64,000 nucleotides of DNA, taken from the NCBI GenBank assembly GCA_019703815.1, contig AP023053.1, positions 46,995 through 110,994 on the forward strand, in the 5' to 3' direction. A program made the position numbers and the translations under genes. The notes under the pieces are model-generated. The model had not been told where the DNA came from. It ran no database searches and saw only the letters and a list, made by a program, of their open reading frames with translations. Position 1 is the stretch's first letter; each line of letters starts with the position of its first letter. Of this stretch, positions 5,537-23,318 are shown in pieces. This stretch comes from Thaumasiovibrio occultus (lineage in GTDB: Bacteria > Pseudomonadota > Gammaproteobacteria > Enterobacterales > Vibrionaceae).

Positions 5537-6232
5537 TTAACCACCCCAACCGCGAGACGAAGAACGACTGCTGCTCCAGCTACTGCGGCTAGAAGAGCGG
5601 CTGTTCGACGCGCTAGAGCGGTTGCTGCTACTCCACGATGAACGAGCTTGCGCTGTTGAACCAAAGCCACCACGAGAGATGGTACGTGCCACGGTCGGTT
5701 TTGGCTCTAGGTCACGGCTTGTCACGGTGACAGTGCGAGCTGAACCTTTGCTAGAGCCGTAGCGATGGCCGTCGGCACTCGACCACGTATCGTAGTAACG
5801 GCTCGATGGCACTGAGCTGTAGTACATTGGCTGCGAGTAGTAACGACGATCGTTTAGCATTCGCGCAAACATGAAGCCGGCCATTGCTGGCATAAACCAT
5901 GACTGATTCGACGATGCGCTTGCCTGTGGCAAACCGGCATTGGCCATGCTGACGCAAGCTTCTTTACCGAAATCGGCTTCACAATCTTCAATCGATGCGT
6001 ATTTAGGCGCGGTACGTTGCGCTTCCAATAATGCATTCACGTAGGCGATTTCACACTGCTCAGCGCGGGTTGGGTTTTCTGACTGACAGTCATCAAGAGA
6101 CTTGTAAATCACCGCTTTGGTCTCAGGATCGCCACTACAACCTGCCAATACAGCGGCGGTGATTGGTGCAATCGAGAAATAGCGCCAGCTCTTGCGGTAA
6201 CGGGCTAAATTGACTTGGGTACTGCGTTTCAT
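5537..6232 (-). CDS. DUF1190 (YjfM-like) protein with Ser/Arg-rich low-complexity C-terminus
   Basis: Lipoprotein-like N-terminus (LAGCSGD). Position as last gene of yjfI-yjfM-like cluster. C-terminal SSSRSS repeats. Confidence 0.6.
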   Translation of the reverse strand: MKRSTQVNLARYRKSWRYFSIAPITAAVLAGCSGDPETKAVIYKSLDDCQSENPTRAEQCEIAYVNALLEAQRTAPKYASIEDCEADFGKEACVSMANAGLPQASASSNQSWFMPAMAGFMFARMLNDRRYYSQPMYYSSVPSSRYYDTWSSADGHRYGSSKGSARTVTVTSRDLEPKPTVARTISRGGFGSTAQARSSWSSSNRSSASNSRSSSRSSWSSSRSSSRGWGG

Positions 6233-6241
6233 TTTACCCCC

Positions 6242-6655
6242 TTAGAAGCTCATGCTCGCTGCATTGAGCATACCGACCGCGATAGACGTCGCTGCCAAGA
6301 CAATGGCCGCCGGAACTTCATCATTGGTAATGCGTTCAATCAACTTTGGCATAAAGACAAAGCGGACCATAAAGAAGGTTAAGATCTGTGCGATCAGCGC
6401 AACAAGACCCCAAACAGCGTAGTCAACCCAGTCGATAGAGGCCGAAGCGGCGCCCGCAATCGCGATGCTGTAACCGACAAATGCACCGGCGTAGGCGACG
6501 GCGGCAGCCGTATTCTTTTCTTTGATCAGCTTCCACTCATCGTGTGGGGTGATGAAGGTGTAAACCAGCTTGAAAATCATCAAGAAGACCAGAGACAGGC
6601 CAAAGTACAATAGAAAGCCCGGTAGTCCGGTTAACGAGTCTAAAATTAACATCAT
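6242..6655 (-). CDS. DUF350 (YjfL-like) small membrane protein
   Basis: 137 aa, four hydrophobic helices. Conserved cluster position. Confidence 0.6.
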   Translation of the reverse strand: MMLILDSLTGLPGFLLYFGLSLVFLMIFKLVYTFITPHDEWKLIKEKNTAAAVAYAGAFVGYSIAIAGAASASIDWVDYAVWGLVALIAQILTFFMVRFVFMPKLIERITNDEVPAAIVLAATSIAVGMLNAASMSF

Positions 6656-6663
6656 AAATCCTT

Positions 6664-7299
6664 TTAACCGATAATCTTAAAATCGGTGGGGGTGAGATCA
6701 AAGCCAGTGCTAAGAGCGACACAACGCTCTGCGCGGTTATTGAGGATCTGCTCTTCGGCAGAAACCAAAAGGTATTCATCGTGATCAGCGTTCGCTTCAC
6801 GCGCATACAACATGATGAACTGATCGGTTTCGCTGGTCACCGTTTCGCTCGTCCACGTTTTTTCGGTCATCGCCACTGGTGCGGTGTTGTCCCAGCTTTT
6901 GTGGAAGGTTTGTCCATCCAATTCGCTGGTCGCTTGCACTACCTTGTGATTGAGCCATTCATCCCACGCGGTATTGCCATCGACTGGCAACGTTTCATAG
7001 AAGTAGAACAGCTTTACCTCAGCAACGTCAGCATCGTCCACGCCACCGTCTTGCAGCACTTGAATGAAGCCGTCGTCATCGGTGTAGAAACGGAGAATAC
7101 GGGTGTTGTTGTCCAATTGAACAAGGCCTACGGCTTTGATCAGTTGCGTTGTTGCCGCGCCTTCGATAGTTAGATCAGGCTCTAGCAGGCGCATTTTTAG
7201 CGCGTCGAGTTCAATCGCGCCGCCAAGCTTTAAACCCAGCACTTGGGGTGGTGGATCGAGTGGCGTTTCCGGTTTTTTCTTTTTAAACCAATCGAACAT
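6664..7299 (-). CDS. DUF2491 (YjfK-like) protein
   Basis: 211 aa acidic soluble protein in conserved position next to PspA-like gene. Confidence 0.6.
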   Translation of the reverse strand: MFDWFKKKKPETPLDPPPQVLGLKLGGAIELDALKMRLLEPDLTIEGAATTQLIKAVGLVQLDNNTRILRFYTDDDGFIQVLQDGGVDDADVAEVKLFYFYETLPVDGNTAWDEWLNHKVVQATSELDGQTFHKSWDNTAPVAMTEKTWTSETVTSETDQFIMLYAREANADHDEYLLVSAEEQILNNRAERCVALSTGFDLTPTDFKIIG

Positions 7300-7305
7300 G
7301 TGAGA

Positions 7306-8349
7306 TCACCATTGAATATTTGTGATTCGGTCATCGGCGATATAAAACAATCGCGCGCCTGATTCTACCTGAGTTTCCAACGTAGGGTTAAGTTGAGTTG
7401 GTCCGTTGGGATTGATCAAACCAATAATGGTCGCGTTGTAGTCAGATTTGAACTTGTCGAACAGATCGCGCACCAAGCAGCCGTCAAGATCCGTTGGGTA
7501 TTGCAGCGCATACTGGGTCATGCCCTTGTCAGTACTCAACAGTTCATGGTGCAGTGAGCTTGAGCCTGGATCGATTGCCGCTTTGGCCATCATTTCCGCT
7601 GACACAGAAGGAATACATTCGACGTTCGGACAGTGCTGCTTGGCTAATCCCACTAAAGCTTCATCATGGAAGTAAGCCAGAATATGGGCGTTAGTGTTAA
7701 GGCCGGAGCAATACAGCGTGGCAGATAAAGTGATGTCGTCTTCTGGGTTATCGACAAGGATAGTTTTCGCGTGGCGCAGATTGAGCTTTTCTGCGGTTGC
7801 TGGGTTGGTGAAGGTCTCGGTTCGCACAAACCCGATCTCACTTGGGAGAGGGTTCTCCATTTCCGGGCGAACGCACAACACAATCGATTGTGAGGGCTCT
7901 TTCCCGTGTTGGATCATGCGAATAAGGTCGAGAGTACGCTGGCCATTCCAGCCTAAAATAACAATGTGATCTTTCACATTTACCCCTCGCTTCCCTGTAA
8001 TGCCGGCGCGCCAGATGCTCGCAGCAAAGCCAGCAAGCTGACCAATCACAATTGCAAACAACCCTAAACCGGCGGGGATAACATATAGCAAGGTTACCCA
8101 TTTCCCCGCGACCGTTTCTGGTGACATATCACCGTAGCCGACGGTTGATGTGGTAACGATAAGAAAATAGATGAAGTCAGTGGCGGAAGCGTAGATCGCC
8201 TCTTCCCCCGCTGCCCAGTAACAAAGCCAAGCAAAAGCGGCGTAGGCCGCGAATAAGATCGCGAGACTACGCCCTGTAAGATTGACTAATTGTTGAATGA
8301 TCCACGGGCGGAAACGCGTCCACGCGTAGACCTCAGTCCACATTGCCAC
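7306..8349 (-). CDS. two-TM potassium channel with cytoplasmic RCK/TrkA-N domain
   Basis: Selectivity filter TTSTVGYGD between two TM helices. HIVILGWNGQ Rossmann-like RCK start. Confidence 0.8.
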   Translation of the reverse strand: MAMWTEVYAWTRFRPWIIQQLVNLTGRSLAILFAAYAAFAWLCYWAAGEEAIYASATDFIYFLIVTTSTVGYGDMSPETVAGKWVTLLYVIPAGLGLFAIVIGQLAGFAASIWRAGITGKRGVNVKDHIVILGWNGQRTLDLIRMIQHGKEPSQSIVLCVRPEMENPLPSEIGFVRTETFTNPATAEKLNLRHAKTILVDNPEDDITLSATLYCSGLNTNAHILAYFHDEALVGLAKQHCPNVECIPSVSAEMMAKAAIDPGSSSLHHELLSTDKGMTQYALQYPTDLDGCLVRDLFDKFKSDYNATIIGLINPNGPTQLNPTLETQVESGARLFYIADDRITNIQW

Positions 8350-8352
8350 CGG

Positions 8353-9039
8353 TTATTTGCCGAGGATGCGAGCCAGTTCGTCTTCGGCTGAAGTGCTACC
8401 TGAACCGGTAATACCTGCTTCAGCCAGTTTCTTATCCAAGCTGCTGCCGGTTGCTTCTTCATCGAGTTCAGCCGCTGCTGAAAGCTCAGCTGCGCGCAAT
8501 TCTTGACGGTTTTTGATGCGCTCTAGCGACTCGACTGCTGTCGACATCTTCGCATTGGCACCCACGCTGGTTGCAGAAACCGCCGCTTGCGCTTTTTGCA
8601 CTGCTTCGTTGGCTTTAACGACATCAACTTGTTGCTCTAGTTGACGCAGTTTGTCTTTCGCTTTGGCAACGTTGGTACGCATGCTGGTTTCTGATGATTG
8701 GAATTGATCCAAGTACGTTTGTTCAACGTCTTTTTCACCGCGTAGTTGGCTCACTTTCTGAGCACACTCTAGTGCCAACTCTTGCTGGCCTTTCTCCATC
8801 GCGTTACGCGCATGGCCTTCGTATTCTTCAATGCTGCTTTGTAGCGCATTGACTTTTTGCTCGGCGACTTTACGCTTTGCTACGATGCCAACCAAGGCTC
8901 TGTCAGAGCGCTCTAGTTCCGCTTTTGCTTCACGGATTTCTTGGTCAAGAATGCGAATTGCTTGGTTGTCAGCAATCGCTTCTGCCGCTTCGTTGGCACC
9001 GCCTTTTAGTGCGGTTACTAATTTAGTCCAGACACCCAT
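8353..9039 (-). CDS. PspA/IM30 family protein (YjfJ-like)
   Basis: 228 aa all-helical coiled-coil protein. Register and length match PspA/IM30. 3 nt after the channel gene stop. Confidence 0.8.
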   Translation of the reverse strand: MGVWTKLVTALKGGANEAAEAIADNQAIRILDQEIREAKAELERSDRALVGIVAKRKVAEQKVNALQSSIEEYEGHARNAMEKGQQELALECAQKVSQLRGEKDVEQTYLDQFQSSETSMRTNVAKAKDKLRQLEQQVDVVKANEAVQKAQAAVSATSVGANAKMSTAVESLERIKNRQELRAAELSAAAELDEEATGSSLDKKLAEAGITGSGSTSAEDELARILGK

Positions 9040-9040
9040 G

Positions 9041-9436
9041 TTACTTTCCTCCCTTTAGGTGGTCTTGATACAGCTCGAGGATTTCCTCGATATTCGCAAA
9101 TTGTGTTCCGATTTCTATCATTATGCTCTCTGCTTTTGACTGCGAAGAGAGGGAACCAAATGCAATGTAGTAGCTAATATTATTAATATTATTAATGCCC
9201 ACTGATGTTAGTGGAAACATTTTGTGTGTACGCAAGATATCTTCGTTAAATGCGTTAGGATCTTTTACCATATCCTTTTCAAATAACAGAGTTTCAACAA
9301 GAATCTGCTCGCCAGAAACTGCAACAAACGCCGTCAGGCCGTCTTCGTTGGTTACAACCAGGCTCTCACCTTGTGCTTCCACTGTCCAGCCATCGTGTTT
9401 GGCAATAATTTCTTGCAATTGTTCAGTTTGCCACAT
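9041..9436 (-). CDS. DUF2170 (YjfI-like) protein
   Basis: 131 aa. First gene of the cluster. Stop 1 nt from PspA-like start. Confidence 0.6.
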   Translation of the reverse strand: MWQTEQLQEIIAKHDGWTVEAQGESLVVTNEDGLTAFVAVSGEQILVETLLFEKDMVKDPNAFNEDILRTHKMFPLTSVGINNINNISYYIAFGSLSSQSKAESIMIEIGTQFANIEEILELYQDHLKGGK

Positions 9437-10190
9437 AATTCTCTTACCTGTATTTGGGTTGAAATGACGAACCTAAGTCGTCAGACGGTACACTTTTTAT
9501 ATGCGCTGTGTTTAACACTAAACGCGGCAACAAAGGTATCGCCTTCACGCTGAAAACGCGAGGGCAGCACAACATTATCCGTCTAACTTCACGTTGTTTC
9601 CTACCATCCCCATCATTCTTTTCAGCACTTTGTGACTGATCTCTACCTGAGTTTCACGTCGGGCAAACAGAAGGGTTTCATTACGGGGTTAGGGTGCTAA
9701 TGCGCGCTGACCACAGTGTAGCGTTTTTCCGGCAAACTGGCGCTGAATACGCTACCCACTGCCCAATTTTTTGCTGTTAAAGTAGGTTATATCAGCCTGA
9801 TTTCGTTGCTATTTGCAATAAAATCGGCACTTTTACGTATCAACAGCGGCGGTCGATTAGGACACGCTGACTTAGTTCTTTCTGGCCGCAAAAGCGATGA
9901 ATAATCTATTAAATATTTGTTTAAGGTATCTTTTCTGGTTTTTTTGTACGGGGAAATAACCTTGTCAGCAGGGGTGATTCATGTGCTTGAAAGCGGCATG
10001 TAACGTAAAAAACCATGATGCCTTGCTAGTACAGGGGAAAGATTTCACGTTCGTTACATTGGTTTTATGACTCAAGTTCATAGTATCGCTTCACGCATTA
10101 TGCATCTCAAAAAAACATCAGCCAGTATCAACTTCGACTCGATATACCGCGCATGTCGGGTTACGTGATTTGTTAAAACTGGAGAGACAA

Positions 10191-12575
10191 ATGAAACTAG
10201 GAATGAAAAGGACTGCCCTTGCTGTTGCTATGGCAACAACAATGACTGCAGGCATGGTTGCCACTGCACACGCTGCTCCGACACACGATAAGCAAGTGAT
10301 CGGTTACTTGACGCAGTGGGAAGCATGGAAAGGACCAGCTGAGGGTTTCTCAGTAAAAGGCGAAGCAACCCACCTCAATGTGGATATGAGCATCTACTCT
10401 ATCCTTAACTTCTCTTTTTTCGGGGTTGCTAAAGACGGTTCTATGCACTCTGGTGATTTGCGTAACAAGAGCATTTACCAACCGAATGCTGTGCAAGAGC
10501 CAGGTCCTCTACTTCACCCAGACGTATACTCTAGCTGGGACTTCCACATCCTTTGGGGTGAGCTAGAGTACATCCACCAGTTCCCTGGCACCGAACCATG
10601 GCAGGCAGAAGCACGCGCTAAAATTGAAGCAGCGGGCTTTGTAGAAGATGGTCGTGGCTGGAAACACGTACCGACTGGTCTAACTGGCCAAATGCCGATC
10701 CCATTGCCAAAAGCGGGCGGTGCTCCAGGTCTTATCGATCTTGCACACCAAAATGGCGTGAAAGTAATGGCATCGATCGGTGGTTGGTCTATGTCTAAGC
10801 ACTTCCCAGAAATGGCAGCGGATCCTGTTAAGAAAGAGCGTTTCTTGCAAGACGTTGACCGTTTGATGGCAATGGGCTTTGACGGTATTGACATCGACTG
10901 GGAATACCCAGGTTCAGGCGGTATGAACTTCACTGGTACGCCAGAAGATTACGCGAACTTTGAGCAGTTGATGGAAGATATCCGTAAGCGTATCGGTCCA
11001 GACAAACTGATCACTGCAGCATTTAAAGCAGTTCCAGCTGCGCTAGATGGCTTTAACTGGCCACGCCTAGTTGCATCAATGGACTACTTCAACATGATGA
11101 CTTACGACCTGAACGGTGGTTGGTCTAACGTTGCGGGTCACAACTCACCGTTGTACCCATACCCAGAAGAAGAGTTCCCAGGTCTGACGCTTGACGATCT
11201 ACGCAAGTGGATGATCGCTGAAGGTATCCCTTCTGAGAAAATCAACTTCGGTGCTGCGTTCTACGGCCGTGGTGTTCAAACGACTGAAGCAACAGCTTAC
11301 CTAGGCGCGCCAACGGACAAGCGTAACGTTAACTTCTCTGTTGATGGTCCTGCGACTTCTGCAGTTGACTTGACTAACTGGAGCAAGTTCGAAGGTCAGC
11401 CTAACTACAACTTCCTGACTAAGCAGCCAGGTTGGACGCACAGCTACGATGCAACTGCAGACGTACCATACGCGGTGAAAGATCAGTTCTTCTTGAGCTA
11501 CGATGATGAGCGTTCAATGGAGAGCAAGGCACAGTACATCGTTGATCACAACCTTGGTGGTATCATCGTATGGCAAGTGCACGGTGACATCGAGTGTAAA
11601 GGTGAGTTCATCCAGTACGGCACTAAGCTGTCTCAGTGTACTAACCTAAGCTCGCCACTGGCTGAGTCTATTGACCGTGTATTCTCTGCGAACACTGTTC
11701 CAAACAATGCACCAGTTCTGACTGTACCAGCAGCACAAACTGCAGCAGCAGGCGCAACCATCACCTTTACCGTTTCTGCAACTGACGCTGACGGCGATCT
11801 ACTGAAGATCACGGCAAGCGGCGCGCAAGTTACTGACAACGGTGACGGTACTGCACTGATCACTTACACTGCGCCAGTAACCGGTGTTGACGTACAAGAA
11901 ACTATCTCTGTAACGGTTTCTGACGGCCGCACTTCAGACATGGCGAACGTGGTAGTTAACGTAACTGGTAACGGTCTAAACACTGCACCAGTAGCGACGG
12001 CTCCAGCGTCTGTAGACGTAAACAGCGGCGCTGACGCGACTATCGTTGTTGAAGCTTCAGATGCAGACGGCGACGCGCTAACCATAACTGCATCGAAAGG
12101 TACTGTGACGCAAACGGCTTCAGGTGCGAACGTGGTTGTTACTGCAGCAGCGTCTGATGTTGATACAGCAGAAACTGTTGTTATCACAGTAGCTGACGGT
12201 ACTGACGCGGTTGAGCTAACTGTTACCTTGAACGTTAAAGGTGCAGCGAACGTGTCTACTTGGGATGCGTCTGCAGTTTACGTAGGCGGTGACAGTGTTG
12301 AGCACGCAGGTAAGACTTGGGTTGCTAAGTGGTGGACTCAAGGTAATGAGCCAGGCACTAACGCAGTTTGGGAAGACCAAAGCGGCGGTAAAGACAACAA
12401 CACAGGTAACGGCAACACTGGCGGCGATACTGGTAACACAGGTAGCAGCTGGGATGCAGGTAAAGTTTACACCGGTGGTGACACTGCGGTATTTAACGGT
12501 GTGACTTACAAAGCGAAGTGGTGGACTAAAGGTGATACTCCAGGAAACCAATACGGTCCTTGGGAAGCACTATAA
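10191..12575 (+). CDS. modular GH18 chitinase (signal peptide, GH18 catalytic domain, Ig-like repeats, two CBM5/12 chitin-binding domains)
   Basis: GGAG SD before ATG 10191. DGIDIDWEYPG catalytic DxxDxDxE motif. Repeated TA/DADGD Ig-like segments. Two C-terminal W...AKWWT.G..PG chitin-binding modules. Confidence 0.9.
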   Translation: MKLGMKRTALAVAMATTMTAGMVATAHAAPTHDKQVIGYLTQWEAWKGPAEGFSVKGEATHLNVDMSIYSILNFSFFGVAKDGSMHSGDLRNKSIYQPNAVQEPGPLLHPDVYSSWDFHILWGELEYIHQFPGTEPWQAEARAKIEAAGFVEDGRGWKHVPTGLTGQMPIPLPKAGGAPGLIDLAHQNGVKVMASIGGWSMSKHFPEMAADPVKKERFLQDVDRLMAMGFDGIDIDWEYPGSGGMNFTGTPEDYANFEQLMEDIRKRIGPDKLITAAFKAVPAALDGFNWPRLVASMDYFNMMTYDLNGGWSNVAGHNSPLYPYPEEEFPGLTLDDLRKWMIAEGIPSEKINFGAAFYGRGVQTTEATAYLGAPTDKRNVNFSVDGPATSAVDLTNWSKFEGQPNYNFLTKQPGWTHSYDATADVPYAVKDQFFLSYDDERSMESKAQYIVDHNLGGIIVWQVHGDIECKGEFIQYGTKLSQCTNLSSPLAESIDRVFSANTVPNNAPVLTVPAAQTAAAGATITFTVSATDADGDLLKITASGAQVTDNGDGTALITYTAPVTGVDVQETISVTVSDGRTSDMANVVVNVTGNGLNTAPVATAPASVDVNSGADATIVVEASDADGDALTITASKGTVTQTASGANVVVTAAASDVDTAETVVITVADGTDAVELTVTLNVKGAANVSTWDASAVYVGGDSVEHAGKTWVAKWWTQGNEPGTNAVWEDQSGGKDNNTGNGNTGGDTGNTGSSWDAGKVYTGGDTAVFNGVTYKAKWWTKGDTPGNQYGPWEAL

Positions 12576-13836: not shown

Positions 13837-13981
13837 AGTCCGCATTTACTCACTCACATTGACCGTGCAGCGAATTATCGCCGCACTGTTTGTACTGCCT
13901 TTACCAATCTCACTAATGCTACTAGGTTTATATCTAGTGAGATGTTGTATCAACACTGATGCATAGAGTGAGGTAGGGCGA

Positions 13982-15058
13982 ATGGGGCAACGACGGCAGG
14001 GAGTAATCGTAGGCTATTGCCTTGCGGCGCTGCTTTCGCTGTTGTTACTGTTCGTTTTTCTACCCTCACATCCGCATGAACCTTCTTATCATGATCATGC
14101 CTCTGCAACCGGTGTCGAGAAAAATGCGGTTAGTGACGCGGCAAGCGCTGATCCGAGCGATATATCGTACCACCCGCTTGTCTCGCCGATCCCTGTGCAA
14201 GAACGTCTCAATAAAGCCCAAGCACTCCTCGGTTGGGTGTTGTTCAACGATGCCAATCTTTCTTCCAATAACAGCGTGAGCTGTGAAAGCTGCCATCATC
14301 TCGATGGAAATGGCGCGGAGCGCTCTGCGGTATCGGTGGGTGTTCATGGTCAAGGGATCCGCAATTCACTCACGGTGTATAACACCGCTTACAACTACCG
14401 ATTTTTCTGGGATGGTCGCGTTAACAGTTTACACGATCAAATTGATGGGCCTATCCACAGCGATGTCGAGATGGACTCAAACTGGAACAACATCGAAGCC
14501 TATTTAACGGCATCTAACAGCTATGCGGCATTGTTTGAAGCAGCAAATTTAACGGTGTCAGAGCAAAGCGTAAAAACGGCATTGGTGGAGTTTATGCGAG
14601 GTTTAAACACGCCCAATGCGCCGTTTGATCGTTATTTAAAAGGGGATGCATCAGCACTTACCGCTCAGCAAGTACGCGGCTGGGAGACGTTTCAACAAGA
14701 AGGCTGCATTCGCTGTCATCGCGGTACCAATATTGGCGGCGGTATGGTGATGCGGTTTGGTTTCTTTGGTGAAAATACCCGCGGCGCAGAACGCTCAACC
14801 GATACCGGACGTCATCTCGAAACCGAAAAGCCCGAAGACATGTATTTGTTCCGCGTCGCCAGCCTGCGCAATGTGGCGGAAACCGCGCCCTATTTTCATG
14901 ATGGCCGCACCCAAACCCTAGAGCAAGCGATTCAAATTATGGGAGAAAGCCAACTGGGTAAAACGTTCGATCCCAATACCATTGCTGATCTGAGCGCTTT
15001 TCTAACGTCGTTATCGGGGGATCGCCCCGCTATTTTGGAAGAGTTTGAGAATGAATAA
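13982..15058 (+). CDS. di-haem cytochrome c peroxidase (CCP/MauG family), periplasmic
   Basis: N-terminal hydrophobic signal. Two CxxCH haem motifs (CESCHH, CIRCHRG). GEN...ER and FRV..LRNVA..APYFHDG blocks typical of bacterial CCP. Confidence 0.85.
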   Translation: MGQRRQGVIVGYCLAALLSLLLLFVFLPSHPHEPSYHDHASATGVEKNAVSDAASADPSDISYHPLVSPIPVQERLNKAQALLGWVLFNDANLSSNNSVSCESCHHLDGNGAERSAVSVGVHGQGIRNSLTVYNTAYNYRFFWDGRVNSLHDQIDGPIHSDVEMDSNWNNIEAYLTASNSYAALFEAANLTVSEQSVKTALVEFMRGLNTPNAPFDRYLKGDASALTAQQVRGWETFQQEGCIRCHRGTNIGGGMVMRFGFFGENTRGAERSTDTGRHLETEKPEDMYLFRVASLRNVAETAPYFHDGRTQTLEQAIQIMGESQLGKTFDPNTIADLSAFLTSLSGDRPAILEEFENE

Positions 15059-17459
15059 AACCAAGAGCTTATTTGTCGTTGCCGTCTTCATCCTTGCGGG
15101 GCTTTTAGGGGCGGTGACTGCCCTGTATTTGGAGTATCGTCAGATCACACAGTACCGCGGGCAAGTAAGCGAATTGGGCCATGAGATAATTGAAGCCCGT
15201 GACGCCGTAACGCAGCATGTATTGAATGCCAACTCTGATCCTTACTATTTAACGCAAGTGTTGGTAGATATAGAACGCGAAACCCAATATATCGTTGAAA
15301 GTTATCATCAAAGTACCGGGGTATGGTTCTACAAACGTGAGACTTATGCGCAGTTAACTGGCTTTACACAGTCGTTAGAAACCATAACTGATGCGTTAGA
15401 TCATGTCATTGGCATTATCATTATGGAGCACTCACTTCTTAACTCCATTTCACAGCACTACGGCGGCCAATTAGGAGAAAATAGTACTGATCTGCTCCAT
15501 ATCCTGATAGGTAGTGAGGATCACACCAACTCAACTGATTTCGCGCAATTAGTGACCACCTATCGCAATGTTGAAGCGCAAAAACAGCAGTTATTTGCGG
15601 TGTTGTTGTCCCATGAAAACATGGCGTTTGTGGAATCGTCTGAACAAGCGATGGGGAAAATTAGCGATAACGTTAGGGCTTTGATTATTAAGCTGTTGAT
15701 CTTGTCAGCGCTGGTCGTAACGTCGTTGATTTTGTTTGTGTATGTTTTGCGGATCAAAGAGCTACGTCGCAACAATGCCGCGTACCAAGCGGCGATTGCC
15801 CAAATTGAAAAAGCCAACCACGCAAAATCTATCTTTTTAGCCACCATGAGCCATGAGCTCAGAACGCCAATGAACGGCGTGTTGGGTATTGCACAAATTA
15901 TTCAAGAAGATGCCAGCGAGCAGCACATTAAAGATCAGGCAAAAATCATTATCGACTCTGGCCAGCACTTGGTCACGTTACTGAACGACATCTTGGACTT
16001 TTCCAAAGTGGAGCAAGGCAAGATGGTGCTGGAGAGTAAGCCGTTTACCATGGATGAAGTGGTAATGCCGCTGCAACAATCACTCAAACCGCTAGCCAAA
16101 GATAAAGCGATCGGTTTTGAGATCAGTAATATCATGCCTCAAAATACGCGCTTGGTTGGCGATCCTTCTCGCCTTCGTCAGATGCTATTCAACCTTGCAG
16201 GCAATGCGATTAAGTTTACTCAGCAAGGGACAGTGGATGTGCGAATTGCGCTATTGGGCGATGAGAAAGAGGGGTTGCACATCACGGTAAAAGATACGGG
16301 GATTGGGATCGCTGCTGACAAACTCGAATCGATATTTACCCCGTTTGAGCAGGCGGAATTGTCGACCACCCGCAAGTTTGGTGGCACCGGGCTCGGGCTT
16401 TCTATCGTCAAACAGATTGCGGATTTGATGGGCGGTGACGTTGAGATCAGCAGCGAATTAGGGCAAGGGACTCAGTTCGTGCTACGCCTACCTTTACACC
16501 TTGAATTTGCGGCGCAAGAGCAAACGCCACTCGCGCCGACAGAAATAGTGCCACAAACGGCGACGGAGCAATCGATGCAGGAGTCGCCGCCAGTAGCGAG
16601 TGAAAGTGTCTCTGGTGCCGCCACAACAGCGCCAACATTGCCAGCGCAGTCGATTAACATTTTGTTAGTTGAAGATAATAAAGTGAATGCGATGGTAGCG
16701 CGCCGCTTCTTGGAAACTTGTGGCTACAGCTCCGATTTGGCCCCGGATGGCTTGGAAGCATTAAAAATGCTGAGAGAAAAGCGCTATGACTTGATTATCA
16801 TGGACAACCATATGCCGAATTTGAGCGGCATCGATACTATTAAGCGCTTGCGCCAAGAGCTGAAACTCAACACTGTGGTGTTCGCCTACACCGCCGACGT
16901 GTTCAAAGATGTGCACGATGAGTTTATCGCGGCAGGGGCCAACTTTGTTCTTACTAAACCGCTACAAAAAAACAGTCTAGAGCAAGCATTGCGACAGTTT
17001 CATCGCGAGATCTTTCAAGCCGCCTCAACAGCTGAAACGAATGTGATCCCCTTGGTGCGCTATCCGGCAAGTCAGTTGCCGATGACCGAAGAAGAAGTGA
17101 CTCACAGCCGTTTATGGCAACAAAAGGAACTGCCGCCAGAAGAAAAGCGTGCGCAGTTGATTGGTTTAAATCTGGCGTTAAATGAGGCGAGCGATCGTTT
17201 ATGTGATGCCTATGCTGATGCAAATAGCGAGCAATTAGCGCGGGTACTAGACACTGTCACCACTTTGGCGCTGAAATTTAGTCTGTCAGATTTGAACTCG
17301 TTGGCTCATGAGTCAGCCGAGTTGGTTAAAACGCAGCAATTGCCGGATGTTGAGGAGCTACAAAAATTGCTAAATCGAATGCAGGTCAATCGTCATCAAA
17401 TTGATCGCCTTTTAGAACAGAGCGCCGCTTTGCCATCACAGAAAAACCACGCTCAGTAA
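15051..17459 (+). CDS. hybrid sensor histidine kinase/response regulator (periplasmic sensor domain, HisKA, HATPase, REC, C-terminal HPt-like)
   Basis: ATG 15051 overlaps the CCP stop (ATGAATAA). Two TM helices flank a periplasmic domain of about 190 aa. H-box MSHELRTPMNGVLG. N/G-boxes. Receiver LLVEDNKVN...DLIIMDNHMP. Confidence 0.85.
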   Translation: MNKTKSLFVVAVFILAGLLGAVTALYLEYRQITQYRGQVSELGHEIIEARDAVTQHVLNANSDPYYLTQVLVDIERETQYIVESYHQSTGVWFYKRETYAQLTGFTQSLETITDALDHVIGIIIMEHSLLNSISQHYGGQLGENSTDLLHILIGSEDHTNSTDFAQLVTTYRNVEAQKQQLFAVLLSHENMAFVESSEQAMGKISDNVRALIIKLLILSALVVTSLILFVYVLRIKELRRNNAAYQAAIAQIEKANHAKSIFLATMSHELRTPMNGVLGIAQIIQEDASEQHIKDQAKIIIDSGQHLVTLLNDILDFSKVEQGKMVLESKPFTMDEVVMPLQQSLKPLAKDKAIGFEISNIMPQNTRLVGDPSRLRQMLFNLAGNAIKFTQQGTVDVRIALLGDEKEGLHITVKDTGIGIAADKLESIFTPFEQAELSTTRKFGGTGLGLSIVKQIADLMGGDVEISSELGQGTQFVLRLPLHLEFAAQEQTPLAPTEIVPQTATEQSMQESPPVASESVSGAATTAPTLPAQSINILLVEDNKVNAMVARRFLETCGYSSDLAPDGLEALKMLREKRYDLIIMDNHMPNLSGIDTIKRLRQELKLNTVVFAYTADVFKDVHDEFIAAGANFVLTKPLQKNSLEQALRQFHREIFQAASTAETNVIPLVRYPASQLPMTEEEVTHSRLWQQKELPPEEKRAQLIGLNLALNEASDRLCDAYADANSEQLARVLDTVTTLALKFSLSDLNSLAHESAELVKTQQLPDVEELQKLLNRMQVNRHQIDRLLEQSAALPSQKNHAQ

Positions 17460-17526: not shown

Positions 17527-17804
17527 CTCACCTTTTAAAAACGAAAGCCATTGTTTGAGAAGCGATTGGCCGTTGTGCCGCCAGTGCGGCTTTACCTTCC
17601 CCCAATGTTCCTGTCGATAGTGCGGCAACGCGTTATTGCATGGATAGAGCGGACTGACTCGCAAATGACAAGTTTCACATTGAGAAGATTGTCAGCTTTG
17701 CTATCTTGTGCCTCATTAACAAGTGGCGGCGCGGTTGACACCAGGTACCTCGCCATCATGCGCCTCACCACTAAGGGAAGGGCTTGCGGGCATGGAGAGC
17801 AGAG

Positions 17805-18299
17805 ATGAAAAAGTGGATAGTCGTTGGGTTGATTGCCGTGGGCGTGATGTATCACTCAACCCTGTTGCGCGTGCCGCTGATCTTTCAATCAGCGGAAGCG
17901 GCGCTGGCAGATTTTTATGACTCAACCGATCAAGCGGAAGATATGCTTATGGATCCGCTAATCCTCGCAGGGCCACGGGTTGTGCCATTGGTGTTAGAAG
18001 AGGTGACCTCATCGACCATGCCGCATCGCCGCTATGCAATTCACTTTTTAGGTCGCTATCCTGCGGCTATCCCGACGCTGAAAACGATTTTGGCCGATGA
18101 ATATGAAGTGGAGTACATCCGCCGCGATGCGCTGGCAAGTCTCTTCAATGTCGATCCCACACTAGGGCAAGATCTCGCAAAACGGTATGTGTCTAGAGGC
18201 GGTGTATTAGGTGAAACCGCAACGAATATTGCCGCCGGCCACAATCCCCATTGGTTTGAGCGCACCTATTGGCAAGCGCTGACCAATGTACATCATTAA
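17805..18299 (+). CDS. hypothetical exported/membrane-anchored protein with HEAT-like repeats
   Basis: MKKWIVVGLIAVGVMY hydrophobic N-terminus. Helical repeat region (RRYAIHFLGRYPAAIPTLKTIL..., RRDALASLFNV). Confidence 0.5.
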   Translation: MKKWIVVGLIAVGVMYHSTLLRVPLIFQSAEAALADFYDSTDQAEDMLMDPLILAGPRVVPLVLEEVTSSTMPHRRYAIHFLGRYPAAIPTLKTILADEYEVEYIRRDALASLFNVDPTLGQDLAKRYVSRGGVLGETATNIAAGHNPHWFERTYWQALTNVHH

Positions 18300-18309
18300 G
18301 GAGCGGCAA

Positions 18310-18633
18310 ATGGAATTTATCGGCAACCCTAGCTGGGATCCTGTGAAAAGCGGCAGCCTGTTGTGTGATGAGCTCACCGCCTTATTTGAGCAGCACCAAG
18401 AGGCATTAGCACAAGCACTTGCCAATGATTTGCCACCAGAGCATGTCGGCAAGCGTTATCAAACATCCGATTTCACCATTGAGGATGTGACCTATATTGA
18501 CATGCATACTTACCTGCTACGTTATTCCTACGCTTGGCAAACTTGGGGCGGCGAGAACAGTGGGCGAACCCAACACGAGATGCACTTTGGCATTTTGGAT
18601 GGCGGTGTGGTGAAACTGTTCTTCTTGGAATAG
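18310..18633 (+). CDS. hypothetical small cytoplasmic protein
   Basis: AAGGAG SD, 7 nt, then ATG 18310. Starts 11 nt after the upstream gene stop (operon pair). Confidence 0.5.
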   Translation: MEFIGNPSWDPVKSGSLLCDELTALFEQHQEALAQALANDLPPEHVGKRYQTSDFTIEDVTYIDMHTYLLRYSYAWQTWGGENSGRTQHEMHFGILDGGVVKLFFLE

Positions 18634-18644
18634 GGTGTGGGGTA

Positions 18645-18670
18645 AAAGAGCTAACTTGTGTTAGCTCTTT
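18645..18670. terminator. bidirectional rho-independent terminator
   Basis: AAAGAGCTAAC-TTGTG-TTAGCTCTTT hairpin with A-run left and TTTTTAGG right. Between convergent genes. Confidence 0.8.
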
Positions 18671-18733
18671 TTTTAGGTTTGTCGTTACTTGAAAGGGGCG
18701 AGGCAGATAACCGCCCTACGTTTTGAATGCTGT

Positions 18734-21061
18734 TTAGGCGGTATGGTAGCGGTAGAACACGGTCGCTAAAGGCGGTAAGGTCAATGTCACCGAATGCGCT
18801 AAACCATGACTTGGCACGTCTGCGACGTCTAACTCAGCCTCGACGGGCGCATCACTGCCCCAGTAAGTGCTGCTGTCTGTGTTCAGTAGCAGTCTGTATT
18901 GCCCTTCTGTCACTGGCACTCCCAAGCGGTAGTTTTCCCGTGGCGTGGGCGTAAAGTTACTGACCACTAAAATCCGCTCGCCGTTGTCGGACAAGCGCTC
19001 GTGGGCAATAACGCTTTGCTCGGCATCACTGTGTTCGCGCCATTCAAATCCACTCGGTTCACAATCTTTTTGGTGCAGTGCTGGCTCACTGCGATAGAGA
19101 TGATTAAGGGCTTTCACCAAATGTTGCATGCCTTGATGTTTGTCGTATTGCAGCCAATGCCACTCTAACTGCGCATCGTGATTCCACTCCGCGGTTTGTG
19201 CGATTTCAGTTCCCATAAAGTTGAGCTTTTTCCCCGGCTGACCATACATGTAGCCAAGATAGGCACGTAAGTTTGCCGCCTGCTGCCACTCATCCCCCGG
19301 CATCTTGTACATCATTGAGCACTTACCATGCACGACTTCATCGTGCGAAAGGGAAAGGACATAGTTCTCACTAAAGGCGTAGCTTAGTGGCAGCGCCAAG
19401 GTGGCATGGTGATACTGACGATGGATAGGTTGTTCGCGAATATAGGCGAGGCTATCGTGCATCCAGCCCATGTTCCATTTCAATCCGAAGCCCAATCCGC
19501 CGTCGCGAGTGGGCGCTGTGACACCGGGAAACGCGGTAGACTCTTCTGCAATGGTGAGCGCATTGGGGTAACGGGCGTAGATCTCTTCGTTCATCCATCG
19601 GAGCAAGCTCACCGCATCATAGTTGATGTTGCCGCCTTCACAGTTCGGGATCCACTCATCGTGTTGACGTGAGTAATCGAGGTACAACATGGAGGCCACC
19701 GCATCCACACGCAAGCCATCGATATGGAAGTGCTCGAACCAAAACAGGGCGTTGGAAACCAACAAGCGACGCACATGATCGCGGCCATAATCGTAAATGT
19801 AGCTGTTCCAATCGTTGTGCCAGCCGCGACGTGGATCCGGATCGTGGTAAAGCGCCGTACCATCGAAGTGGGCGAGGCCATGCTCATCCGCCGGATAGTG
19901 CGCGGGCACCCAATCCAGGATCACCCCGATGCCGGCTTGGTGGCATTGATCGACGAAGAATTTGAACTCATCCGGTGAGCCATAACGACTGGTCGGGGCG
20001 AAGAGTCCGATCGGCTGATAGCCCCAAGAGCCAAAGAACGGATGCTCGCTAACAGGCAGTAGCTCAACATGGCTATAGCCCATCTCGACCAGATAAGGGA
20101 TCAGTTCGGCTGCCAACTCACGATAGGTCAGGAAATCCCCGTTGGCATGGCGTTTCCAAGAGCCTGCATGCAACTCGTAAAATGACAGAGCTTCTTTATG
20201 CTTGGCCGTGACTGGACGTTGCTGCCACGCGCTGTCTTGCCAGTGGTATTGGTTTTGATCGTAGACAATCGACGAAAACGACGGATATTGCTCGGCGTGA
20301 TAGCCCCATGGATCTTGCTTGTGGGGTAGTGCGTTTCCTTGGCTGTCTTTTAAGGCATATTTATAGCAATCGCCACCGTTAAGGCCCGGAATAAACAACA
20401 GCCAGCAGCCATGATCAATACGCTGCATTGGATGGCGGCGCTCATCCCAGTGGTTGAAATCGCCAATGACGCTGACTGCGCTGGCGTTGGGCGCAAACAC
20501 AATAAAGCGAACGCCCTCTACTTGTTGGTCGCCTCGGGTTGCGGTGTGCAATTGTGCGCCCATTTCACTGTGCGCCAACGCCGGCGTATGCAATGCCTCA
20601 AGTGCAGGCGCTGCGTCGTGAAATTGGTAAGGGTCAATCACGGTTTGGGTCTGACCTTGCCAATCAATGGTGAGGGAGTAGAGCTGATCGCGCAGATCCA
20701 GATCGCAATGCAGCACAAAACTGCTGGTCTCGGCGTCCCGTCTTGGTTGAGTGGTTTTGTGGGTTGATTGGGTTAGGGGATCAGAGGTACGTAGTGCTTT
20801 GTGATCAGAGGAGCTTAGGGCCTCGAGAGCAGAAGTACAAAGGGCAGCGGTTGTCTCTGCCGCCGAATGGACAGTTTCGCGAGTTAGCTTGAGCGTTTGT
20901 CCTGTGAACGTATTGACACTGACAGCGCTCGCGCCAGGCATAAATACACGTAGGGCCACATCTTGCGCGTACGGCCCTAGCGTTGAAAACGGGTTGTTAT
21001 AGGCTGCTTTGTCGAGTTGCGATAAAGCGTGTTGAAGTGTGTTAACCGATTCTGATTTCAT
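18734..21061 (-). CDS. glgB: 1,4-alpha-glucan branching enzyme
   Basis: GH13 blocks ([44 protein letters not shown]). CBM48 N-domain. Start chosen at MKSESV with AGGA SD. ORF extends to 21241 with a TTG/ATG-less leader. Confidence 0.85.
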
Positions 21062-21380
21062 TGTGATCCTGTGTCTCTGCATCTGCGCGAGTGAACACGT
21101 CAGTGCAGTATTTTCATTATTATGCAGGTGGTCTCCATAACCACGAGGCGAGCGGGCCTTAGGGCGATGTCGCGCGGTTATTATCGGCAGAGGGCATAGC
21201 GGGGCAAGTTTTGGATGCGAGAGATGAGTGATTACGCACATATCTCCCTATCCGGTTGGACTTAAAACGATCACTTTGTATATTGTTTTCCCGCCAGACT
21301 ATTAGTCTGACGAATAATAAATAATCAAAACATCATATCAACATCACACAGAAACACTTCTACTCAGGAAAACCAACACA

Positions 21381-23318
21381 ATGGAATGGAAGATGACGTT
21401 AGGGGATCCCACGTTATTGGGGGCCTCATTATCGGCTTCTGGCTGCAATTTCTCCGTTTATGCTCCGCACGTCGACGACGCTAAATTGGCGCTGTTTAAT
21501 GCGGATGATTCTTACCTTGTGATCCCTATGCATCGCCATGGCGATGGCACGTACACGGTGGCGGTGGAGAATGTACACGCTGGCACGCGTTACGGTTACT
21601 TCTGCCAAAAAGGGGCCCAATTTCAGTGGATTTTAGACCCGTATGCGGGGGAGATCTGCGACAGTCTTTTTACGAGATCGGTGGCGGAGCCGACCTTGTT
21701 GGCTAAGGTGGTCGATCATCGCTTTGATTGGCAACAGAGCGTCGCGCCCAACACCGCGATGAGCCACACTGCGCTATTTGAGCTGCACGTTAAAGGTTTT
21801 ACCCAACAACACCTTGGGATCGCCGAAGCCTTTCGCGGGACCTACCTTGGTTTGTGTCAGCCCGAAGCGATTGCGTTTTTTCAGCAAGCTGGGATCACTG
21901 CTCTACAGTTGTTGCCTGTGGCAGCCAAGCAAGATGAGCCCCATTTACTCGATAAAGCACTAACCAATTACTGGGGTTACAATCCGGTGGCATTTTTCGC
22001 GCCGGATGCACGCTTTGCGATCCGCGATCCGGTCAATGAATTCAAACAGATGGTGCGTGAGTTGCATCGTCATGGTATTGAAGTGATTCTGGATGTGGTG
22101 TTTAACCATACCGCTGAGGGCGGTTCCGGTGGTCCGGTTTTCCATCAAAAATGGCTCGATCCCGAATTTTATCTGCGTAATAAGCAAGGTTCGCTGCACA
22201 ATTACACCGGTTGTGGAAACACCGTGGATCTTTCTCATCCTCCGGCGATGCGGATGGTAATGGATGCACTGCGTCACTGGGTGAGCGAATACCATATTGA
22301 TGGTTTTCGTTTTGATCTGGCGGCAACGTTAGGGCGACACCGTGAGAATTTTTGTGCCAGCGCGGCGTTTTTCCAAGCGGTGTATCAAGACCCGATTTTG
22401 CGCCGCTGTAAATTGATCGCTGAACCCTGGGATATCGGGCCGAATGGCTATCAATTGGGCCAGTTTCCGTTGGGTTGGCATGAATGTAATGACAAGTTTC
22501 GCGATAACATGCGCAGCTTTTGGCATGGTACGGGCGCGACGGTAGCGGATTTCGCGACCCGTTTGATGGGCTCGCGCGATCTGTTTAGCGCCGCCAACTG
22601 GCCGCAAAAGTTGAGCGTGAACTACATTACCTACCACGATGGATTCACGTTGCAAGATCTGGTTTCTTACCAAGGCAGACATAACTGCGCCAATGGTGAA
22701 GGAGGGCGAGATGGCCATGGGGATAATCATTCAGACAATCATGGTGTTGAAGGCCCTACCGACGATCTCGCCATCCAAGGTTACCGAGAGCATCAAAAGC
22801 GCAATTTAATGGCGAGTTTGTTGTTTAGCTTTGGCGTGCCGCATTTATTGGCAGCCGATCATGTGTCGCACAGTCAGCAAGGCAACAATAATGCATATTG
22901 CCAAGATAATGCGCTCAGTTGGCTGGATTGGGCGGCTGCGCAAAATGATACCTTTGGACCTTGGTTGGCAGTGATGATGGACAAGCGCCACCGCTACATG
23001 GTGCCGATGATCGACGCGTTTTGTGGTGAAAATCGCAAGTGTCACCGCATCAACTGGACCACGTCAGCAGGGTTACCGTTGTCTGAACACGACTGGCATC
23101 AACGTAAGGCGATCCAACTGCATATGGGGTTGTTTGATGACGGCCAAGAGATGCTGTACTTGATTAACCCAACCCCGACAGACAAAACGTTTACTTTACC
23201 GGCGGGGAAAGCATGGACCTTGATCTGTGATACTAGCACTGCCGATCTCAGTGATAGCGTATTACCGCAGAGCCAGTTTGATTTAGCTCCTTACTCGATG
23301 GCGATAGGGGTACGTTAG
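21381..23318 (+). CDS. glgX: glycogen debranching enzyme
   Basis: 645 aa. GH13 subfamily 11 blocks (VILDVVFNHT, GFRFDLAATL, AEPWD, YITYHDGFTL). Confidence 0.85.
   Translation: MEWKMTLGDPTLLGASLSASGCNFSVYAPHVDDAKLALFNADDSYLVIPMHRHGDGTYTVAVENVHAGTRYGYFCQKGAQFQWILDPYAGEICDSLFTRSVAEPTLLAKVVDHRFDWQQSVAPNTAMSHTALFELHVKGFTQQHLGIAEAFRGTYLGLCQPEAIAFFQQAGITALQLLPVAAKQDEPHLLDKALTNYWGYNPVAFFAPDARFAIRDPVNEFKQMVRELHRHGIEVILDVVFNHTAEGGSGGPVFHQKWLDPEFYLRNKQGSLHNYTGCGNTVDLSHPPAMRMVMDALRHWVSEYHIDGFRFDLAATLGRHRENFCASAAFFQAVYQDPILRRCKLIAEPWDIGPNGYQLGQFPLGWHECNDKFRDNMRSFWHGTGATVADFATRLMGSRDLFSAANWPQKLSVNYITYHDGFTLQDLVSYQGRHNCANGEGGRDGHGDNHSDNHGVEGPTDDLAIQGYREHQKRNLMASLLFSFGVPHLLAADHVSHSQQGNNNAYCQDNALSWLDWAAAQNDTFGPWLAVMMDKRHRYMVPMIDAFCGENRKCHRINWTTSAGLPLSEHDWHQRKAIQLHMGLFDDGQEMLYLINPTPTDKTFTLPAGKAWTLICDTSTADLSDSVLPQSQFDLAPYSMAIGVR

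Follow-up and report, generated by a model that had tools for sequence, protein, structure and literature searches.

The peroxidase-kinase gene pair of Thaumasiovibrio occultus

The 64,000-nucleotide stretch of Thaumasiovibrio occultus DNA analysed here (contig AP023053.1, positions 46,995 to 110,994; hereafter the window) carries a gene for a di-haem cytochrome c peroxidase (CCP) whose 3′ end overlaps the start of a gene for a hybrid sensor histidine kinase. The pair was compared with about 200 related loci, and its features are collected in Table 1. From the kinase ATG at 15051 to the stop codon of the CCP gene (TAA, 15056-15058), the two genes share 8 nt, as an earlier note made from the DNA letters alone had read them; a TTG at 15045, two codons upstream of the ATG, is an alternative kinase start. 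An 8-nt overlap (ATGAATAA, ATGAGTAG or GTGAATAA) is also present in Vibrio parahaemolyticus, T. subtropicus, V. coralliilyticus, V. splendidus and Enterovibrio norvegicus, five species of a "short" Vibrio type in which it is accompanied by a GGAG-like motif about 10 nt upstream. In the "long" type, whose kinase contains a PAS domain, a 4-nt ATGA overlap takes its place.

Table 1. Positions in the window of the peroxidase and kinase genes and of their predicted parts (pLDDT, predicted local distance difference test; TM, transmembrane)
Feature	Position	Strand	Basis or remark
Di-haem CCP family gene, 358 aa	13982..15058	+	PF03150 match, 1eb7 match; sensor-coupled clade
N-terminal hydrophobic helix, CCP residues 2-25, read as uncleaved anchor	13985..14056	+	sequence; model pLDDT 73-90
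His-rich low-confidence linker from anchor to fold, CCP residues ~29-64	14066..14173	+	sequence, pLDDT
First haem c motif CESCH (C101, C104, H105), peroxidatic low-potential haem	14282..14296	+	
Val121 (column of P. aeruginosa CCP distal His71) and neighbouring His122	14342..14347	+	
Conserved Trp143 (inter-haem), Gln153 and Glu163 (active-site residues of bacterial CCPs)	14408..14470	+	
Second haem c motif CIRCH (C242, C245, H246), electron-transfer haem	14705..14719	+	
Met320, axial ligand of high-potential haem (Met275 in P. aeruginosa CCP)	14939..14941	+	
8-nt overlap ATGAATAA of CCP stop and kinase start	15051..15058	+	conserved among Vibrionaceae orthologues
Hybrid sensor histidine kinase gene, 802 aa	15051..17459	+	
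Kinase TM1, residues 7-25	15069..15125	+	hydrophobic segment
Periplasmic sensor domain, 189 aa, predicted all-helical	15126..15692	+	conserved GHE..RD ... PY..LV.E motif
Kinase TM2, residues 215-233	15693..15749	+	hydrophobic segment
HisKA, residues 258-323; phospho-accepting His268 at 15852-15854	15822..16019	+	Pfam E 1.2e-17
HATPase_c, residues 370-483	16158..16499	+	Pfam E 3.1e-33
REC, residues 537-647; Asp585 at 16803-16805	16659..16991	+	Pfam E 3.9e-23
Degenerate Hpt-like helical domain; Asp734 (17250-17252) at phospho-His position	17118..17420	+	

The peroxidase

The window CCP is 100% identical to a T. occultus protein entry. It matches the CCP_MauG family (PF03150) in Pfam at E 9.8e-45, its 153.3 bits lying above the cut-off of 25.6, and has two CxxCH motifs, and the earlier note's description of a periplasmic-type di-haem CCP holds. 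Among solved structures, the CCP of Pseudomonas aeruginosa (1eb7) aligns with it at E 1.9e-60 and classical CCPs together at E 1e-49 to 1e-60; MauG structures reach about 1e-9. Identity as a MauG-like enzyme was considered and rejected on these far stronger matches to classical structures and on the NCBIfam scores: MbnH and MauG are the best NCBIfam models for the protein, though it misses the cut-offs of both (MbnH TIGR04039, 151.9 against 362.85; MauG TIGR03791, 110.8 against 443.85). With scores so far under the cut-offs, the protein is classed, from its sequence, as a classical-type bacterial CCP.

The features shared with the classical CCPs of P. aeruginosa (1eb7), M. hydrocarbonoclasticus (1nml) and Paracoccus (2c1u) comprise the fold, the haem motifs, the axial Met, the Trp, the calcium site and the active-site Gln and Glu. 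Residues M320, W143, N128, T301, P303, Q153 and E163 align with P. aeruginosa M275, W94, N79, T256, P258, Q104 and E114, respectively, and the Asn, Thr and Pro of the calcium site (N128, T301 and P303) are among those kept. Unlike the classical enzymes, the window CCP has a probable membrane anchor, a His-rich linker and a near-obligately linked sensor gene; the classical CCPs also possess a distal His where the sensor-coupled clade mostly has Ile or Val.

The anchor is an addition to the earlier description. In an AlphaFold model built on 17 relatives (mean pLDDT 73), a helix at residues 2-25 is followed by a low-confidence stretch at 30-64 (pLDDT <50) and then by the CCP fold, and the 24-residue N-terminal helix looks like a membrane anchor with a flexible linker rather than a cleaved signal peptide. 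The linker holds 5 His among 42 residues in the window protein and about 12 in V. coralliilyticus (HSKHNDAEHDHASEPDHHDSHQHDHQH), and its His-rich character is more striking in other Vibrio homologues than here. Conceivably, it might serve as a metal-binding or pH-sensitive tether.

The kinase

The protein encoded immediately downstream combines in one chain the defining elements of a hybrid histidine kinase, namely an H-box His268, a HATPase_c domain and a REC domain with Asp585. Both the HisKA-HATPase-REC series and the periplasmic domain of about 190 residues between two TM helices, which the earlier note had proposed, are found, the latter being 189 residues long. Two NCBIfam models, LuxQ_Vibrio (426.5; cut-off 1200) and TorS (349.3; cut-off 676.5), align below their cut-offs and solely with the cytoplasmic part of the protein.

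The C-terminal region, previously described as Hpt-like, is homologous to Hpt domains but does not carry their phosphorylated histidine. The corresponding regions of orthologues match Pfam Hpt, whereas a Pfam scan of the window kinase gives no Hpt match, and Asp734 stands where the orthologues with such matches have the His of their HxxKG motif. These two features argue that the protein is, as far as its sequence can tell, a hybrid kinase with a degenerate Hpt domain and not a functional "unorthodox" kinase, and that label of the earlier note is given up. The Hpt His is likewise replaced in several orthologues (Asp in the window; Gln, Ser or Lys elsewhere; window and loci L001, L003 and L004 of the comparison set) and kept in others (L002, L005, L081 and L083). 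The domain is apparently decaying repeatedly within this kinase family.

Pairing of the two genes in Vibrionaceae and Shewanella

A CCP gene followed by a hybrid kinase gene is found at all 14 Vibrionaceae and Shewanella loci examined, including that of the window. The relatives are V. bivalvicida, V. agarilyticus, V. maritimus, two Shewanella, V. parahaemolyticus (a cluster of 703 sequences), Aliivibrio fischeri, T. subtropicus, V. coralliilyticus, V. splendidus, Enterovibrio norvegicus and Vibrio sp. SCSIO 43136, and in all of them the kinase directly 3′ of the CCP orthologue shows the same two-TM layout. The genes that flank the pair differ in every species, being variously methyl-accepting chemotaxis protein (MCP), resistance-nodulation-division (RND) efflux, sulfatase, cadherin-like or glp genes, and T. 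subtropicus and the window have only the CCP and kinase genes in common at the DNA level. Separation of CCP and kinase in most relatives, an outcome that the earlier note had named as telling against its interpretation, is not observed.

An exception to the usual kinase layout occurs in one V. harveyi genome (L208, 1030-2341), where the kinase is cut to about 120 codons beside conjugative type IV secretion system genes. The CCP encoded there (P0089) has lost an active-site Glu that is invariant elsewhere, and also the Gly-Arg part of its WDGR motif. Decay of the CCP beside a truncated kinase fits mutual dependence of the two proteins in this single case.

Some loci carry further genes after the pair. 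In T. subtropicus (L204, 8506-10434), V. coralliilyticus (L205, 8448-10316) and V. agarilyticus (L002, 10549-12456), a third gene encodes a protein of 622-642 aa with a PAS domain, a degenerate kinase-like region and a REC domain; such a gene was looked for in the window and is absent. In V. parahaemolyticus (L081), the kinase gene is followed on the same strand by an OsmC-family gene (9403-9876). OsmC proteins are organic hydroperoxide reductases, and this neighbour hints at a peroxide-related locus.

Pairing with DAHL receptors across phyla

Outside these groups, nearly all evaluable relatives of the window CCP are coupled to receptors with a DAHL periplasmic domain (PF19443). A forward scan of one genome per species, with a CCP alignment as the query, gave 80 loci from many phyla, at 74 of which an open reading frame (ORF) on the same strand starts at the CCP stop. 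The overlap with the CCP gene is present for 62 of these 74 downstream ORFs and amounts to exactly 4 nt in 43. Pfam recognises DAHL in 56 of the 63 downstream proteins scanned; the seven partners without it all fall among the 11 missed by a local DAHL hidden Markov model (HMM), and five of the seven belong to Vibrionaceae or Shewanella loci. When the local HMM is combined with a stop-to-stop ORF scan, a DAHL protein is encoded directly 3′ of the CCP at 69 of 74 evaluable non-Vibrionaceae loci, and the Campylobacterota loci of the sample have this CCP-DAHL layout.

The outputs of the receptors are varied. Among the 63 partners are found HATPase (32), GGDEF (21), EAL (19), SpoIIE (4), MCP (2) and cyclase (1) domains, with confirmed examples that include a DAHL-kinase in P. 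syringae, a DAHL-PAS-GGDEF-EAL protein in Arcobacter, one DAHL-MCP and one DAHL-SpoIIE protein. At the P. syringae locus (L073), the CCP and the DAHL-kinase (~600 aa) are followed by a REC-HisKA-HATPase protein (~467 aa; Pfam), and three other Pseudomonas loci (L056, L066 and L077) have ORFs of matching size and spacing with kinase-like BLAST matches.

The association is equally close when approached from the receptor. In a reverse scan, metagenome contigs were searched with the back-translated DAHL motif FKSxNAxxxNSxxYLP, yielding 120 loci, all of them DAHL by the HMM; since the pattern selects canonical DAHL domains, conservation of the motif itself is circular, and the YD and His columns lie outside it. 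A CCP gene with E below 1e-90 is found immediately 5′ of the DAHL gene at 82 of the 85 loci that have at least 1.1 kb of upstream sequence, and most of those with less show a partial CCP at the contig edge. Three DAHL loci (L101, L149 and L160) are without any CCP.

Genes of this CCP clade thus nearly always stand beside one for a helical periplasmic sensor domain, whatever the output, and the pairing is far beyond chance. It bears out the phylogenetic co-occurrence that the earlier note had wished to see checked. The module may be described as a CCP without the distal His whose gene overlaps or abuts, on the upstream side, a gene for a two-TM sensor, and the window pair has this organisation. 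In the literature searched, no paper found describes a general CCP-DAHL coupling.

An intact active site without the distal histidine

To compare the residues of the coupled peroxidases, 178 of them (12 from Vibrionaceae and Shewanella and 166 coupled to DAHL) were aligned with the P. aeruginosa CCP. Conservation reaches 99-100% for the haem motifs (both CxxCH motifs are invariant in 177 of the 178 proteins), the axial Met, the Trp between the haems and the residues of the calcium site, and 93-97% for the active-site Gln and Glu and the following Met. No coupled CCP has His in the column of the distal His71: all 12 Vibrionaceae and Shewanella proteins have Val there, and the 166 DAHL-coupled ones have Ile, Val, Phe or Met. 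In resting classical CCPs, the peroxidatic haem is ligated and closed by His71. The pattern of conservation thus suggests that the haem chemistry is under strong selection and that a self-inhibiting ligand has been given up in the coupled CCPs. One residue past Val121, the window protein has a His (His122) that is unique to it among 17 close relatives, and a HMMER alignment with 1eb7 pairs this His122, not Val121, with His71, which makes the absence of the distal ligand less certain for this one protein.

In a neighbour-joining (NJ) tree of CCP cores, drawn without bootstrap, the Vibrionaceae and Shewanella proteins group together as the sister clade of the DAHL-coupled CCPs, and a long branch separates both groups from the classical CCPs. 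Another enzyme without the distal His, the membrane-anchored quinol peroxidase YhjA of Escherichia coli (PDB 9qdt), falls among the sensor-coupled CCPs in this tree.

Loss of the distal ligand in all 178 proteins predicts a five-coordinate, permanently open peroxidatic haem, a condition known from MauG. It could be taken to mean that the coupled CCPs work in the manner of MauG or MbnH, using H2O2 (hydrogen peroxide) to modify residues in the periplasmic domain of the sensor by oxidation or cross-linking, with the covalent change acting as a signal or as a maturation step. Such a relay would be equally expected to show gene coupling; it would agree with the rank of MbnH and MauG as the best NCBIfam models of the window CCP, and it could employ the near-invariant Tyr, Asp, Lys, Asn and His of DAHL domains, not all of which are part of the search pattern. 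It is nevertheless regarded as improbable. The NCBIfam scores and the structure matches given above both place the protein far from MauG. The six-coordinate haem of MauG has a Tyr in place of Met as its axial ligand, whereas Met320 of the window protein, like its counterpart in all coupled CCPs, is of the CCP type. Moreover, the Vibrionaceae sensor domains do not have the invariant DAHL residues.

A proposed two-subunit periplasmic sensor

On balance, and with moderate confidence, the CCP and the kinase are read as a two-subunit periplasmic sensor, in which the CCP would be the H2O2 or redox input subunit and not only a detoxifying enzyme. The earlier note's suggestion of a co-sensor or accessory periplasmic partner gains support from the co-occurrence seen in both scan directions and from the constancy of the CCP and the periplasmic domain in the face of varied outputs. 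A constant peroxidase and periplasmic domain joined to an interchangeable output argue that the CCP acts with the sensing end of the receptor.

A simpler account of the gene order is that of an enzyme in an operon with its regulator: the kinase would sense alone and control expression of the peroxidase, or the two would merely be co-expressed, and the proteins would have no physical partnership. Two-component genes frequently neighbour their target genes; the CCP, with all its catalytic residues kept, could be a working periplasmic peroxidase, and the OsmC-family gene after the V. parahaemolyticus kinase would fit a peroxide-defence locus. This account is nonetheless judged unlikely. Many partners in the sister clade are chemoreceptors, cyclic di-GMP (c-di-GMP) enzymes, PP2C phosphatases or cyclases, none of which directly regulates transcription of a neighbouring gene, and chemoreceptors and c-di-GMP enzymes, which do not control ccp transcription, are hard to reconcile with a receptor that is a mere ccp regulator. 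It is the periplasmic domain, not the output, that is constant, and the position of a CCP directly upstream of nearly all DAHL genes with sufficient flanking sequence, mostly with overlapping stop and start codons, is typical of subunits. Nor does a response regulator gene lie beside the pair in the window.

If the CCP is indeed the input subunit, signalling could proceed as follows. The membrane-tethered di-haem peroxidase, with its full predicted catalytic site, would receive the signal, and the state of its haems would shift on turnover of H2O2 or on a changed supply of electrons from the periplasmic cytochrome pool. Bacterial CCPs undergo large redox-linked loop movements (compare the paired structures 2c1u/2c1v and 1eb7/2vhd). 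The change in haem state would be handed to the ~190-aa helical periplasmic domain of the kinase, and translational coupling would supply the two proteins in matched amounts at the same place. The kinase would then autophosphorylate on His268 and pass the phosphate to its own receiver Asp585. Since the Hpt-like domain has no His, a separate Hpt protein would presumably relay the phosphate onward, to a response regulator whose gene lies elsewhere.

Comparison with described systems

The closest described case is that of DocA and Tlp10 in Campylobacter jejuni, in which docA (Cj0020c), encoding a CCP, lies immediately 5′ of docB (PMC3156733), and overlaps and is translationally coupled to this chemoreceptor gene (docB/Tlp10, Cj0019c) (PMC13462783; PMC3156733). 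The two CCPs of C. jejuni make no contribution to H2O2 resistance, chick colonisation requires docA, and the authors suggested that DocA may signal peroxide availability to Tlp10 (PMC13462783; PMC3156733). Common to this system and the window is a CCP gene coupled upstream of a receptor with an all-helical periplasmic domain. The output of Tlp10 is that of a chemoreceptor rather than of a hybrid histidine kinase, and its ligand-binding domain is of the DAHL type (PMC9303924), with reported ligands, whereas the sensor domain of the window gives no Pfam DAHL match.

A second comparison is provided by A. fischeri. The gene of its CCP orthologue (47% identity to the window CCP) overlaps by 4 nt the downstream gene for a 943-aa kinase, whose layout is TM - periplasmic loop - TM - PAS - HisKA - HATPase - REC - Hpt. 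The pair is located on chromosome 2 beside glpK and glpF (L082/L083, genes at 6001-7020 and 7017-9848); in L082, a frameshift splits the kinase gene, giving a 756-aa product and a 150-aa Hpt product. The phosphorelay positions of this kinase (His 420, Asp 716 and His 874) are 7-8 residues from H412, D709 and H867, which we take to be the corresponding residues of RscS. A nine-adenine run has been described at nucleotide 1141 of rscS (Rotman et al., 10.1101/471292), and the KKK codons of the A. fischeri kinase start exactly 24 nt from that nucleotide, an 8-codon offset from the published numbering. Because of these two offsets, the partner kinase of A. fischeri is probably RscS, the symbiotic regulator of syp biofilm, an identification made from landmarks rather than by aligning the ES114 sequence itself. 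The window kinase differs from RscS in having neither the additional PAS domain nor a functional Hpt His, and the RscS-type periplasmic domain is related to that of the window (hhalign probability 87.5%, E 3.6e-6, for the "short" Vibrio against the "long" Shewanella and A. fischeri domains). None of the papers found on rscS mentions an upstream CCP.

In TorT-TorS and LuxP-LuxQ, a hybrid kinase whose periplasmic domain lies between two TM helices receives its signal from a periplasmic partner, much as proposed here. The core of the window kinase is LuxQ- or TorS-like in its cytoplasmic part; the sensor domains do not align, and TorT and LuxP are non-enzymatic solute-binding proteins rather than haem enzymes. 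A haem-binding accessory protein is found in HbpS-SenS-SenR of Streptomyces reticuli, where HbpS is an extracytoplasmic redox sensor for a membrane histidine kinase. It belongs to a Gram-positive system, has an unrelated fold and is not a c-type cytochrome.

The sensor domain and observations that weigh against a peroxidase input

Several observations weigh against the CCP as the input subunit of the kinase. The DAHL domain of Tlp10 is reported to bind small molecules directly (PMC9303924, citing Elgamoudi 2021), so that the domain may not need a protein partner. The intact catalytic site of the CCP is, as a sequence feature, equally compatible with an ordinary enzyme, and no response regulator or Hpt gene adjoins the pair in the window. 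The Vibrionaceae CCPs are not nested among the DAHL-coupled ones in the unbootstrapped NJ tree. Pfam DAHL (PF19443) gives no match at E<=10 in the window kinase or in seven Vibrionaceae and Shewanella orthologues, while control partners match at 3e-25 (L006) and 7e-45 (L014), and profile comparison offers a weak link: with the TM helices removed, hhalign E values are 0.025, then 0.009 and 0.036 with deeper alignments, at probabilities below 5%, against 0.2-0.85 for reversed and shuffled controls. With no DAHL match in the window, the DAHL statistics transfer to it only through CCP relationship and synteny. The AlphaFold model of the sensor domain, built from the single sequence, is of low confidence (mean pLDDT 57). 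Finally, physical contact, the signal itself (H2O2 or cytochrome-pool redox state), the direction of information flow and the downstream phosphorelay are deduced from sequence, and contact and peroxide-dependent signalling are likewise deductions for every member of the module.

Binding of ligands by Tlp10 could be carried further, with the periplasmic domain as a direct receptor of small molecules and the CCP as a respiratory or energy-conserving H2O2 reductase that shares its transcript by chance. The reported ligands of the Tlp10 DAHL domain, bound at two sites, are amino acids, organic acids and sugars (PMC9303924), and periplasmic H2O2 has been proposed as an electron acceptor for the CCPs of C. 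jejuni (PMC13462783). Such an arrangement seems very unlikely, as it would leave unexplained the near-obligate two-way coupling over phyla and outputs, the clade-wide loss of the distal His and the decay of the CCP in V. harveyi, where the kinase is truncated.

The nature of the window's sensor domain was pursued further. Its predicted secondary structure is all helix. A 93% hhalign probability between the N-terminal regions of Vibrionaceae and DAHL receptors was rejected as evidence of homology, for it collapses without the TM helices. The Vibrionaceae sensor domains and DAHL have in common a co-linear R...YD..LV motif; the window domain measures 189 aa between the TM helices against a DAHL median of 230 aa. 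An exhaustive phmmer search with the 190-aa periplasmic domain against 1.84 billion representative proteins returned 16 matches, a number from which the family would appear to be small and fast-evolving. Eight long matches, scanned with Pfam, are HisKA-HATPase-REC(-Hpt) kinases, bar one Ig-like chance match, and DAHL is found in none of the eight. A word-indexed protein search with the N-terminal 258 aa of the kinase gave no match, and one with an eight-sequence alignment gave three unannotated fragments only, which form no bridge to DAHL. The sensor domain of the window is either a very divergent DAHL domain or a replacement that would keep the same partnership.

Genomic surroundings of the pair in the window

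The 145-nt region 5′ of the CCP start contains a perfect 9-nt inverted repeat (ATCTCACTA / TAGTGAGAT, 19 nt between the arms, 13907..13943), and four copies of CTCACT/AGTGAG are found at 13849-13977, including those at 13849 and 13966. Judging from their sequence and arrangement, these elements may represent a candidate operator.

Upstream of the pair are genes for a GH18 chitinase with CBM5/12 modules (10170-12575) and for an EamA-type membrane protein. Downstream, two small ORFs on the + strand (17784-18299 and 18286-18633; 171 and 115 aa) occupy the space between the kinase gene and a strong terminator-like hairpin (18644-18671), and are followed by GlgB (18734-21241, - strand) and GlgX (21381-23318). 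Neither small ORF has a match in Pfam or NCBIfam; the 171-aa product has a hydrophobic segment at its N-terminus. The chitinase, EamA-type, glgB and glgX neighbours appear unrelated to the CCP-kinase pair.

Implications of a possible peroxide sensor

Sensor kinases with accessory proteins are known; to our knowledge, a catalytically intact di-haem peroxidase has not been demonstrated in such a role. The window locus is a member of a widespread, essentially uncharacterised sensing module, which supplies a candidate partner and a candidate signal for the poorly understood DAHL family. It also suggests that many proteins annotated as "cytochrome c peroxidase" may be signalling components and not defence enzymes. 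A signalling role for some CCPs fits the behaviour of DocA, which gives no protection against H2O2 and is yet needed in colonisation.

A more far-reaching proposal, tentative and as a whole rather doubtful, is that this CCP clade was taken over to serve as haem-based receptor subunit in a widespread periplasmic H2O2 or redox module, with a residue of the partner at the open haem and host peroxide as the input of RscS and Tlp10. Without the distal His, the peroxidatic haem may be accessible to such a residue, conceivably the His that is nearly invariant in DAHL or His44, conserved in the Vibrionaceae domain, and binding of peroxide or reduction of the haem would then directly switch the receptor. 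Hypotheses of this kind are open to testing in V. fischeri, C. jejuni, V. parahaemolyticus and P. syringae, and the Pseudomonas loci offer a genetically tractable model for the DAHL-type module. If the proposal is true, a single module would feed two-component kinases, c-di-GMP enzymes, chemoreceptors, PP2C phosphatases and cyclases, and the inputs of V. fischeri RscS in symbiotic biofilm formation and of C. jejuni Tlp10/DocB in gut colonisation would be host-derived peroxide, perceived through the CCP encoded upstream.

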